Below, in pieces: positions 9,186 through 14,324 of a DNA stretch of 64,000 bases; position 1 is the first letter of the stretch; each line of letters starts with the position of its first letter. The notes below the pieces were generated by a model. The model was given only the letters and a program-made list of their open reading frames with translations, was not told the origin of the DNA and did not search any database. Made by a program: the position numbers and the translations under genes. The stretch comes from Escherichia phage Ptacy1496: the sequence record PQ863253.1, one strand, 5' to 3'.

Positions 9186-9200
9186 TCTTTGACGATTTAA

Positions 9201-9229
9201 GGGACCTTCGGGTCCCTTTAGTTGTTTTT
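9201..9229 (+). terminator. Rho-independent terminator after gene 23
   Basis: GGGACC-TTCG-GGTCCC followed by TTTAGTTGTTTTT. Confidence 0.8.
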
Positions 9230-9233
9230 ATGG

Positions 9234-9241
9234 TATAAATA
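9234..9241 (+). promoter_or_regulatory. Late promoter TATAAATA upstream of gene 24
   Basis: Exact consensus just after gene 23 terminator. Confidence 0.7.
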
Positions 9242-9268
9242 AATCATATAAACTGAAAGGAAAGCGCA

Positions 9269-10581: not shown

Positions 10582-11586
10582 TTAACTTACCAATTCAATC
10601 CAAGCCGGACGAAGTACATCTTGTACCATTTTAACTAATTCCTTCTTAATCAAAGAAGGATTATCCGCTTGAGTTAGAGTAATACCTTCACGAGAAGTTT
10701 CTTCCAAAATATCTTGAACAGTTAGCCCCATCACCTTTCCAAAATCTTTTGGACCAATTTCACCAATTTTAGAAATAACGTTATTTACTCGGTTCAGTGT
10801 AACGTAACAAGCTAAAATTCCAACCAATTTGTTATCAGCTTCTGACAGTTCAACTTTAGCTTTAATAGGCTTATCAGACTTTTTCTTTTCACTAAATTTA
10901 GAGTTCTTGCATTTGATAGCTACGCGATTGCCATTAGGCATCCAAGAAGGATAACAAGGTTTCAATACATATCCTTCAGCGGTAAATACTTCGCCTTTTA
11001 CTTCAGCATTCCAAACGCATTTATTTGCATCAACTAATCCAGCATGGTCTACCGTAAAATTATAATCCTGGACGACAGAATCTAAATCATTTGGCAATTT
11101 AATAAGTTCTTCAAATTTACCACGACCTAAAAGTGGAGCCATTTTAAATTTAAATGTATTACAAAATGATTCCATCATATAATCATCGACATAAGTCACA
11201 TCACCACTTTCTGTAGTGACAATAATGTCAAATACATAAAAATCTTTATCGCCATAATCGACATTCTTCTGAATGCCAGGTCCAGCGAATTCACCAAAGA
11301 CTTGATAAGATACAACCGCTGAGGTTTCCATAATATCTTGTACTGCTTTAATAGAATCTTCGTAATTCTTTAGAATAATTTCATACCCAAAGAAATCTTC
11401 AGCAGGAAGAATCGGTCCAGTACGTTTAGCGCAAGTTACTTTATCACGCTCAATAATCAATGAGAAATTTGTGCCGTGAATCTTTTCACGAGCTACCCAC
11501 TCCCCACCAGTCAATCCCAAGCTATAAAGTTTTTCAATAAATTTAGAGTTGTAATGATTTTCAAGACTGCTATACTTTTTAAACAT
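10582..11586 (-). CDS. rnlB: RNA ligase 2 (RnlB)
   Basis: 334 aa, nucleotidyltransferase lysine motif EKIHGTN; T4 Rnl2 length. Confidence 0.92.
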
Positions 11587-11595
11587 AATTAATCC

Positions 11596-11874
11596 TCAAA
11601 ATGTAATTTCTAACCAATCACCATCACGCTGATCACTATTGACTTTAAAGCTGAATCCTTCTTTTCTCAGCCAATCACCAATTTCTTCAGTAATCAATTT
11701 ATCACGAGCAATACAATAATAACTAAAATGTGTTTTACCTTGTTCAGCTGCTTTATTAGCAAGTTCCGAAAAATCTTTAATAAAACACTCTAGCTTAAAC
11801 TGTTTACTTTTAAGTGCTTTTTCGCGCAATTGATTAGCAAAAGATTCATTTTCATAAAGATCATACTGTTCCAT
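11596..11874 (-). CDS. Hypothetical protein (T4 24.2 position)
   Basis: 92 aa ORF, compact spacing with neighbours. Confidence 0.65.
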   Translation of the reverse strand: MEQYDLYENESFANQLREKALKSKQFKLECFIKDFSELANKAAEQGKTHFSYYCIARDKLITEEIGDWLRKEGFSFKVNSDQRDGDWLEITF

Positions 11875-12076
11875 TTTTCACCTTTTTATTGATATGTCTT
11901 TTTCTATAGACGACTTTTTCTCGAGTTTCAAATTTATTTTTAGCAGTCATAGCTCGAGCCCATAATACAGCCACTTCTTTTGCCTGTAAGTTTAATTCAC
12001 GAGCAATTTCAATGAATGACTTTCCAGACTCATGAAGAGTAAACACCACAACCTCAGTTCTCATAATCAATCTCAT
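11861..12076 (-). CDS. Small putative helix-turn-helix protein (T4 24.3 position)
   Basis: 71 aa; HTH-like segment SGKSFIEIARELNLQAKEVAVLW; basic C-terminus. Confidence 0.6.
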   Translation of the reverse strand: MRLIMRTEVVVFTLHESGKSFIEIARELNLQAKEVAVLWARAMTAKNKFETREKVVYRKRHINKKVKNGTV

Positions 12077-12165: not shown

Positions 12166-13584
12166 TTATGGATAGGTATAGATGATACCAGTTTCTAAAG
12201 CAGTTTTATGAATGATGTATCCATTACGCGATTCTTGAACATCAACTTCTGGATAGTCTTTCATCATCTTCTGAAGAGTGTAACGATGTAGGTAATATTT
12301 ACTATCTGGGTCGTCAGTTTTCCAATCTTTACCTTCTTCGGTCATTTTTTGGATTTCATCCATAACCCACCAACCGCACCAGATATAAGCTGAAGTACGA
12401 TGTGGAAGAGGATGAACATAAGGTAGTTCACCTTCTGGTTCTGGAGCAACTTTATCAGTTACCTGAACTTGACCTTCTGCTGTAATAGTTTTGCTATCGT
12501 AATCAGTTGCAGTAACGACAGCAGTAACTTCAATAGTTTGACTTCCAACAGATGAGGTATCGACAGTATATACGTTAGTTGACCCTTCTACAGGAGAAGA
12601 ATCTTTCTTCCATGAGTAAGTAATTTGTGCTTCTTCTGGAGCACCCGTAACATTAGCCGTAAATGTAGCCGGAGCATCTTGCTGAACATTAATAGAAGGA
12701 GGAGTCAATGTAACCTGTGGATTCATTGTCTTCTTATTAACTGTCAATGATACTTCATTAGAAGTAACTTCCTTTTCATTGTAATTTTCAGCAGTTACTT
12801 GGGCTACGCATTTAATTCTTTTTACTCCACTTGTAGTTGGAGTATAGCTAAATGTAGAGTTAGTTTCTCCACCAACTTGTGAATCATCTACATACCACTG
12901 ATACGTAGCAGACGCTCCATCAGGTTGAGAAGCTAAGGCAGCAGTAAATTGAACTGGGGTTCCGATTACTCCCGCTGGAGGACTATCAGGAGTTACTGCC
13001 AAAGTAGTTGTCTGCGTCTTTTTATTAACAGTCAGTGACACTTCATTGGAAGTAACTTCCTTTGTATCATAATCTGTCGCGGTTACTTGAGCTACGCACT
13101 TAATTGTTTTAACTCCGCTTGCGTCAGGAGTGTAATTGAATGTAGTGCTAGTTGCTTCGCCCACAGGAGAACCGTCAACGTACCATTGATACGTAGCGTT
13201 TGCACCTGATGGCTGTGAAGCTAAGGCAGCGGTAAATTCAATTGGAGTTCCAATCACTCCAGCATCAGGGCTACCAGGAGTTACTGCCAAAGTAGTTGTT
13301 TGTGTCTTATTTTGAACTGTGATAGTTGTACTAATTTCAGCTGTTTCAGGTTCAGATTCTGCAACTTGATTGGTTGCAACTACTTTAATAGTCTTTTGAC
13401 CGGCAGGTCCTTTTAGTACATAACTAAAAGTTGCTGACGTTTCTTCCTGTGGAGCGTCGTCTACAGTCCAAGCATATGTAATAGTTCCGCCTCCAGTTTC
13501 ACCACTGGGTGTAGCAGTAAACTGCTTAGTTTCATCAATAACCCCTGTCGGTGTTTTAGGAGTTATATCAACTGTAAAAGTCAT
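12166..13584 (-). CDS. hoc: Highly immunogenic outer capsid protein Hoc with an additional Ig-like domain
   Basis: 472 aa versus 376 aa in T4; two consecutive ~96 aa Ig-like domains (aa 93-188 and 189-284) are clear paralogs; conserved C-terminal capsid-binding region. Confidence 0.9.
   Translation of the reverse strand: MTFTVDITPKTPTGVIDETKQFTATPSGETGGGTITYAWTVDDAPQEETSATFSYVLKGPAGQKTIKVVATNQVAESEPETAEISTTITVQNKTQTTTLAVTPGSPDAGVIGTPIEFTAALASQPSGANATYQWYVDGSPVGEATSTTFNYTPDASGVKTIKCVAQVTATDYDTKEVTSNEVSLTVNKKTQTTTLAVTPDSPPAGVIGTPVQFTAALASQPDGASATYQWYVDDSQVGGETNSTFSYTPTTSGVKRIKCVAQVTAENYNEKEVTSNEVSLTVNKKTMNPQVTLTPPSINVQQDAPATFTANVTGAPEEAQITYSWKKDSSPVEGSTNVYTVDTSSVGSQTIEVTAVVTATDYDSKTITAEGQVQVTDKVAPEPEGELPYVHPLPHRTSAYIWCGWWVMDEIQKMTEEGKDWKTDDPDSKYYLHRYTLQKMMKDYPEVDVQESRNGYIIHKTALETGIIYTYP
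12733..13308 (-). repeat. Diverged tandem duplication encoding two ~96 aa Ig-like domains within hoc
   Basis: Two adjacent ~288-nt segments show extended nucleotide and protein similarity (KTQTTTLAVTP...EVSLTVNK twice). Confidence 0.8.
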
Positions 13585-13593
13585 AAGTTATCC

Positions 13594-14274
13594 TTATTTT
13601 AATGTTACGAAAGAAGAGTTGCGTGTTTCACGAATTAGAACTGATCCGTCACGGTTAATGTAATAAATTAAGCTAAATAAAGTTTGGTGTGCTGACGCAT
13701 GTTCAAAACTAGTTGGGTGAGATTTCCAATCAGGAGTTTCAGCAATCCATTGATAAATCCACCAAGGAACAGTACAGAATCCTGGATTTTTTCCAATCAA
13801 CTGAAGATTCGGGCTAAAGTTTTCCGGAAGAGTAAATACAGACGGCTTTTCAGATTCAATAATCTCAGCTACAGCCTGTTCAAATTTTTCTTCAACAAAT
13901 GGAGTATCTTCAATCAAAACATCGGTATTTTCAGGAATTTTATCTGTTTCTACTACTTCAATTTTAATGTCAGATTTAACCGGAGAATCAATCAAAAGTG
14001 CTGCTTCTGGATTGACTTCTTCATCGTCATATTTTAACCCCTCTGCAGCATCAGCAGCATCAATTAAGTCTTTAATAGATAACCCATCAGTCTCCGGCAT
14101 AGGTTCACTAGCGAGCTTCTGGAGAGCTTCTTCAATATCATTAACGATATTATCAAAAGATTTATTCTTTTTGACCTTTATACCAAACTGTTCAGCATAT
14201 TCAGCTAATTTAGCTTTAGCTTCTTTATTATCATCAAGAGCCTTCAGCTCTGCAATATAATCTTTATCTATCAT
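13594..14274 (-). CDS. inh: Prohead protease inhibitor Inh
   Basis: 226 aa, T4 Inh length and position. Confidence 0.85.
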   Translation of the reverse strand: MIDKDYIAELKALDDNKEAKAKLAEYAEQFGIKVKKNKSFDNIVNDIEEALQKLASEPMPETDGLSIKDLIDAADAAEGLKYDDEEVNPEAALLIDSPVKSDIKIEVVETDKIPENTDVLIEDTPFVEEKFEQAVAEIIESEKPSVFTLPENFSPNLQLIGKNPGFCTVPWWIYQWIAETPDWKSHPTSFEHASAHQTLFSLIYYINRDGSVLIRETRNSSFVTLK

Positions 14275-14287
14275 AATATTTCCTCAG

Positions 14288-14295
14288 TATAAATA
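14288..14295 (+). promoter_or_regulatory. Late promoter TATAAATA upstream of uvsW
   Basis: Exact consensus in inh/uvsW divergent intergenic region. Confidence 0.65.
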
Positions 14296-14324
14296 TAGAT
14301 ATATTTATTACATGGTATTTAGAC

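Follow-up and report, generated by a model that had tools for sequence, protein, structure and literature searches.

The window analyzed here is a stretch of 64,000 nucleotides of Escherichia phage Ptacy1496 DNA (sequence record PQ863253.1), the first 25 kb of which show 98.4% identity to Escherichia phage vB_EcoM_G4507, a Tequatrovirus. An open reading frame (ORF) on the minus strand at 12166-13584 is flanked on one side by an inh-like ORF (13594-14274) and on the other by small ORFs and, past these, an RNA ligase 2-like ORF (10582-11586), with a uvsW-like helicase ORF beyond this neighborhood. Comparison of the window ORFs with the T4 annotation (NC_000866) places it between inh and 24.3/24.2/rnlB, matching the T4 order. 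When the 472-aa product was searched against the sequences of solved structures with phmmer, T4 Hoc was the sole match (E = 8.9e-222), the best stretch aligning query residues 189-472 with T4 Hoc residues 93-376. On the basis of the T4 gene order, the sole solved-structure match and a C-terminal domain nearly identical to that of T4 Hoc, we assign this ORF to hoc, the gene of the highly immunogenic outer capsid protein.

Some further differences from T4 were observed around the gene. The gap between inh and uvsW is only 50 nt (window 14275-14324), while T4 carries the homing endonuclease gene segE at this place. The ORFs of 521 and 427 aa, taken as genes 23 and 24, are separated by 83 nt (window 9186-9268); in T4, part of segD is annotated just past gene 24, at the edge of the T4 stretch compared. 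These gaps leave no space for segE between inh and uvsW or for an endonuclease gene between the capsid genes. The small ORF at window 11861-12076, in the position of T4 gene 24.3, encodes 71 aa as opposed to 56 aa (171 nt) in T4, and its counterpart in Sfk20 is also 216 nt long.

The features of hoc are given below, with the unit types A and B as defined in a later section:

12166..13584, minus strand: hoc coding sequence, 472 aa plus stop codon (ORF listing, T4 Hoc match, T4-like gene order)
13309..13584, minus strand: predicted Ig-like domain 1 (D1), residues 1-92 (HMM match 1-93; pLDDT 84-94; aligns with T4 residues 1-92)
13021..13308, minus strand: repeat copy a, residues 93-188, type-A Ig/PKD-like unit (Pfam PKD and Ig_2; tandem repeat)
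12733..13020, minus strand: repeat copy b, residues 189-284, type-B unit (best Pfam PKD stretch 195-267)
12445..12732, minus strand: predicted Ig-like domain 3 (D3), residues 285-380 (Pfam Ig_3/I-set 289-373; HMM 285-378)
12169..12444, minus strand: putative C-terminal capsid-binding domain, residues 381-472 (near-identity to T4 residues 285-376)

Several lines of evidence suggest that the protein comprises four Ig-like domains and a conserved capsid-binding domain. Pfam returned PKD in two stretches, Ig_2, and Ig_3/I-set at 289-373, while a domain HMM built from the four putative domains of this Hoc gave four consecutive envelopes (1-93, 93-188, 189-284 and 285-378). An AlphaFold2 model made from 37 aligned homologs consists of four all-beta domains with a pLDDT of 83-95 in each 10-residue block up to residue 370; its low confidence in the C-terminal domain was attributed to the shallow alignment. 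In a Foldseek search against the PDB, the top matches were four-Ig-domain fragments of Dscam1, Sidekick and ICAM-5. The domain prediction recommended in a preliminary description of this DNA was made with Pfam, HMM, AlphaFold2 and Foldseek. D1, the repeat units and D3 share 28-34% mutual identity. D3 aligns with T4 Hoc residues 189-284 and adjoins the capsid-binding domain, which differs from T4 residues 285-376 by one non-synonymous change (dN 0.005, dS 0.14) and carries the same tryptophan-rich motif, AYIWCGWWVMDE, as T4 Hoc.

The tandem repeat and its T4 counterpart

Hoc residues 93-284 correspond exactly to window positions 12733-13308, and Tandem Repeats Finder reported 12728-13308 (period 288, 2.0 copies, 78% matches, score 708). 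The interval consists of two adjacent, in-frame copies of 288 nt (96 aa), equal in length and free of gaps, as expected of an intragenic tandem duplication. The copies are identical at 221 of 288 bases (77%) and, in an ungapped and in-register alignment, at 76 of 96 residues (79%), so that residues 93-188 and 189-284 are indeed the clear paralogs described initially. This similarity is far beyond chance; the identity of the two units to D1 and D3 is only 28-34%, and to any domain of other genera at most 37%. The repeat boundaries coincide with the domain HMM envelopes 93-188 and 189-284 as well as with breaks in the predicted strand pattern.

The divergence of the copies is considerable. Third codon positions are identical in 56 of 96 cases, and the codon differences comprise 35 synonymous and 20 non-synonymous changes. 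The Nei-Gojobori estimates between copies a and b were dS = 1.03, dN = 0.137 and dN/dS = 0.13. Given a dS of about 1.0 and a dN/dS of 0.13, the copies are old and both under purifying selection. The earlier argument that the duplication is not recent since the DNA copies have diverged is supported by this dS value.

T4 Hoc (solved chains 5vf3_Z, 8t1x and 8t9r) is encoded by the same gene at the same genomic position, but it has one domain-2 unit, whereas Ptacy1496 has two, A followed by B. The length of 376 aa given for T4 Hoc in the preliminary description was confirmed by NC_000866 and the solved chains; T4 Hoc is therefore not a protein of about 472 aa with four Ig domains. When the two proteins are aligned, the gap falls inside the repeat. 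At the DNA level the T4 unit is 90% identical to copy b, with 96-100% identity in every 24-nt window over unit nt 73-216, and 78% identical to copy a. Over nt 217-240, it is 96% identical to copy a and 75% to copy b, and it can be described as a mosaic of a type-B core and an A-like 3' tail. Copy a (residues 93-188) is therefore the unit absent from T4, and copy b the counterpart of T4 domain 2.

Between the hoc genes of Ptacy1496 and T4, dS amounts to 0.215 for D1, 0.267 for unit b, 0.216 for D3 and 0.143 for the C-terminal domain. The split between copies a and b is hence several times older than the divergence of the two genes, and the contrast of about 1.0 with 0.14-0.27 argues against a gain in the recent Ptacy1496 lineage. 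The proposal that this Hoc carries an extra domain from an old duplication can thus be retained in part: the protein exceeds its T4 homolog by one Ig-like domain and the repeat is old, but it is not a departure from the norm. The implied gain does not stand in the same way, as loss of a unit in the T4 lineage is at least as well supported by the a/b dS of about 1.0 and the type-B core of the T4 unit. From the sequence comparison, the T4 three-Ig form seems at least as likely to be a reduced state as an ancestral one.

Copy number and unit types in Tequatrovirus hoc

A megablast search with the hoc gene matched 678 phage records, eight of which are at least 99% identical across the full gene length. 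In vB_EcoM_G4498, Yersinia phage PYps5T and Salmonella phage UAB_60, the whole gene is 99.9% identical at the nucleotide level and of the four-Ig form; with essentially no difference among them, these genes are the same allele as that of Ptacy1496. The near-identical deposited genes are annotated as Hoc, PKD-domain or capsid proteins. Among 60 evenly spaced megablast records, about 22 had a span of 1419 nt and about 28 the T4-type span of 1131 nt, with the two-copy form accounting for approximately 44% of the full-length matches. A rough estimate from the number of places in the phage collection matching a 90-nt junction probe gave approximately 30%; the coverage count of the same probe was unusable, as half-matches were joined in single-copy genes. 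By these figures, the 472-aa length accounts for roughly a third to two-fifths of the hoc genes sequenced in Tequatrovirus, a frequency close to that of the T4 form. The A-B architecture recurs across numerous independent isolates, whose hosts are Escherichia, Shigella, Yersinia and Salmonella.

Longer forms were also found. Protein searches of public genomes and metagenomes revealed Hoc clusters of 376, 472 and 568 aa, and tblastn with the 568-aa form identified about 20 phage records with three copies. The hoc genes of slur03, vB_EcoM_FJ1 and Sfk20 are 1995 nt long and encode 664 aa with four units and six Ig-like domains. They are the largest arrays seen, at the following loci:

slur03 (L029), 67-2061: four-copy hoc
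vB_EcoM_FJ1 (L030), 110-2104: four-copy hoc
Sfk20 (L031), 116-2110: four-copy hoc

The 568-aa (UGKSEcP1, YUEEL01) and 664-aa proteins share D1, D3, the C-terminal domain and the family of 96-aa units with Ptacy1496 Hoc; in place of A-B, the former have three units (A-C-D, A-B-D or A-B-C) and the latter four (A-B-C-D). Sequence parsing gave a unit of exactly 96 aa at every copy number from one to four, i.e., in proteins of 376, 472, 568 and 664 aa. No array of more than four copies was found in a protein search queried with the 664-aa form, which did not list the 664-aa proteins themselves and returned one further multi-copy cluster only, the divergent 567-aa P0123.

A number of records deserve mention in their own right. 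In Shigella phage KNP5, only a 588-nt CDS is annotated within a hoc span of 2072 nt, and this record was left out of the analysis. In phages T2 (PV958097, L026) and T6 (AP018814, L027), hoc is annotated as two or three CDS fragments, which suggests frameshifts or a disrupted hoc in laboratory stocks. A 93% identical hoc was found in a 32-kb record that bears the name Staphylococcus phage SAJK-IND (MG010123), one Hoc cluster carries the label "endonuclease [Shigella sonnei]", and several others appear as part of assemblies of E. coli, Shigella or Salmonella. These oddly named records look like mislabeled entries or phage sequence within bacterial assemblies.

When 37 unit DNA sequences taken from 18 genes were placed in a neighbor-joining tree, the units grouped by their position in the array and not by phage, with copy a clustering with the first units of two-, three- and four-copy genes. 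Four paralog types, A, B, C and D, could be distinguished, and the four-copy genes are ordered A-B-C-D. Synonymous divergence is 0.6-1.2 between types and 0.1-0.3 within them, and dN/dS within types is about 0.07-0.2 across phages. Based on the difference in dS, the types diverged well before the present alleles.

The types were subsequently used in a census in which the central segment of every unit was typed in 191 non-identical proteins, with the four-copy genes as references. The set consisted of representatives of 90%-identity clusters and a handful of named phages, which are mutually related and hence not independent. Clearly typed multi-copy arrays numbered 26, namely AB (7), AC (3), AD (3), BC (1), BD (1), ABC (2), ABD (3), ACD (3) and ABCD (3). 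Neither a violation of this order nor a repeated type was encountered in these 26 arrays of related sequences. All four types also occur in single-copy genes, and 13 of the 15 possible non-empty subsets of A-B-C-D are represented in the sample, C-D and B-C-D being unseen. Another 21 multi-copy arrays hold an ambiguous unit (A/C or B/C intermediates or mosaics), and one tie-break reads four of these 21 as C-B or C-C. The second unit of Ptacy1496 is itself borderline between B and C in protein typing, but the DNA tree places it with B. Under strict criteria, no diagnostic site is private to type B; the painting of single-copy units with diagnostic sites failed for this type, and the results from segment identity were kept instead. 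Owing to this relatedness among the cluster representatives, the fixed-order pattern is no more than suggestive.

Units outside the four types were observed in P0049 (472 aa) and P0123 (567 aa), which have D1 and C-terminal domains of the Tequatrovirus type and middle units approximately 55% identical to A-D. An identity this low suggests that further module types circulate.

Recombination and the origin of the array

Strong mosaicism is seen at 22 hypervariable positions of the units. Sixteen of these 22 most variable positions lie outside predicted strands; strands make up half of the residues. The single unit of RB32 combines a type-A core (90-92%, nt 73-216) with a type-B tail (97%, nt 217-288) and is what a crossover between an A unit and the B unit next to it should produce; the T4 unit, with its B core and A-like tail, has the reverse pattern. 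Units a and b of Ptacy1496 hoc share identical runs of 25, 14 and 15 nt, and such runs could support in-frame deletions of 288 nt. Near-identical genome backbones were also found to carry different forms of hoc. CHD2BS1 (L032; A-B, 472 aa) and fFiEco06 (L037; single D, 376 aa) are assigned to the same species, Tequatrovirus ecombl75.

From these data we infer that the ancestral gene carried a multi-copy array, whose units were recurrently lost and exchanged in register. This array would have arisen by intragenic tandem duplication, and the present copy numbers would mostly result from in-register homologous recombination between units, leading to deletions, unequal crossovers and gene conversion. 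Inference of the direction of copy-number change from trees is weak, as the units are strongly mosaic.

A different history has also been considered, in which a single-unit, T4-like gene is ancestral and divergent domain-2 alleles evolved in separate phage lineages, to be brought into tandem only later, when unequal or illegitimate recombination took place between co-infecting phages. In that case the divergence of a and b would reflect the age of alleles and not that of an intragenic duplication. The abundance of single-copy genes of each of the four types, the pervasive mosaicism and exchange at hoc, and the different hoc configurations on closely related genome backbones all speak for tandem joining. 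However, all clearly typed arrays keep the order A, B, C, D with no type repeated, and this fits tandem joining less well, as repeated independent events should give other orders as well. Furthermore, all unit junctions are in the same phase and the units are exactly 96 aa long. Joining would also require a crossover between a unit end and the end of D1, where LTVNKKT and ITVQNKT share few residues, while loss from an existing array has longer homology available within units. We thus regard tandem joining as rather unlikely, at perhaps one chance in a few.

Two simpler readings concern Ptacy1496 itself and were rejected. A recent duplication private to this phage finds its only argument in the absence of the extra domain from the reference phage T4, and it is highly improbable in view of the age of the copies (dS of about 1.0, compared to 0.14-0.27 for the gene against T4 hoc), the wide occurrence of the same A-B form in independent isolates and the grouping of the copies by position across phages. 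That the repeat is an artefact of assembly, i.e., a collapsed or expanded repeat, has nothing specific in its favor beyond the general proneness of tandem repeats to misassembly. Its probability is practically negligible: with 67 of the 288 bases distinguishing the copies, reads can be placed unambiguously, the frame is open, and the whole gene is matched at 99% or more by eight database records.

Taken together, Ptacy1496 hoc very probably belongs to a family of genes with one to four old paralogous units of 96 aa, in this case A-B, encoding a T4-like fibre and probably derived from an ancestral array. The more specific proposal that Tequatrovirus hoc is an old, ordered A-B-C-D array of Ig modules, of which the three-Ig Hoc of T4 is a reduced derivative, has in our view an even chance of being correct. 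If true, recurrent in-register recombination would produce combinatorial adhesin fibres on the capsid surface that vary in length and loop content.

Hoc fibres in T4 and other phages

Hoc is a capsid fibre which has been proposed to stick T4-like phages to mucus, and it is a standard display platform on T4 heads. The T4 protein forms a fibre of 180 Å in which three Ig-like domains are carried by a C-terminal domain, the latter binding each of the six subunits of a gp23* hexamer; one monomer is located at the center of each hexamer, giving 155 per head, and the protein is dispensable for growth (PMC10385173). Binding of Hoc domains to MUC2 fucose takes place at different sites in different phages (PMC11150434, PMC11853027), and mucosal persistence was improved by Hoc mutations (PMC9271167). 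By analogy, Ptacy1496 Hoc would be anchored by its C-terminal domain at the centers of the major capsid protein hexamers, and the projecting Ig fibre could let the phage adhere weakly to mucin glycans and to the surface of bacteria. A fourth Ig domain would make the fibre roughly a quarter longer, that is, by one Ig domain, and would add one more set of variable loops; altered adhesion or display is plausible.

Several natural alleles of hoc are common, the copies of the middle domain ranging from one to four; the three-Ig form of T4 is only one of these alleles, and extrapolating from T4 may therefore introduce a reference bias. Hoc copy number bears on the choice of therapeutic phages, with respect to mucosal retention, and on the design of display constructs. 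Ptacy1496 hoc itself is an ordinary, already deposited allele, and variation in the number of Ig domains in Hoc has already been published. Homologs contain one to ten Ig-like domains, and this number is highly variable even among close relatives of T4 (PMC10385173). In the literature we found no description of a domain-2 duplication in Tequatrovirus or of an ordered A-B-C-D array; the ordered structure and the possibly reduced T4 form may be the sole points not reported before.

Comparable changes were observed outside Tequatrovirus. IMG/VR loci with Hoc proteins 47-51% identical to that of Ptacy1496 include forms of about 282, 377 and 472 aa. One of them, L006, is vB_EcoM_IME341, found among relatives of IME08 and SP18, a group which we take to be Dhakavirus. 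The Dhakavirus-like proteins (L006, L007, L008 and L012) have the same overall design with lengths that vary by one Ig domain, but their extra domain is a copy of D3, whereas in Tequatrovirus it is a copy of D2. The D3 copies are 59% identical in L006 and 79% in L007 and were apparently duplicated separately, while the two-Ig form of this sister group lacks D2. Given the separate D3 copies and the missing D2, Hoc seems to have gained and lost Ig domains repeatedly. The Tequatrovirus domain-2 units form their own clade, with at most 37% identity to any domain of these other phages. At L015 (31-3150), an ORF of 1039 aa ending in a Hoc-type C-terminal domain was also noted, which is very long and Muldoon-like.

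Among published variants, the Hoc of Serratia phage Muldoon has 10 Ig-like domains and that of PhiPNJ-9 has two, and the respective papers do not describe the Tequatrovirus array of domain-2 units (PMC10385173, PMC11853027). Their sequences are distant, but both proteins combine a C-terminal capsid-binding domain with a variable string of Ig domains, as does Ptacy1496 Hoc.
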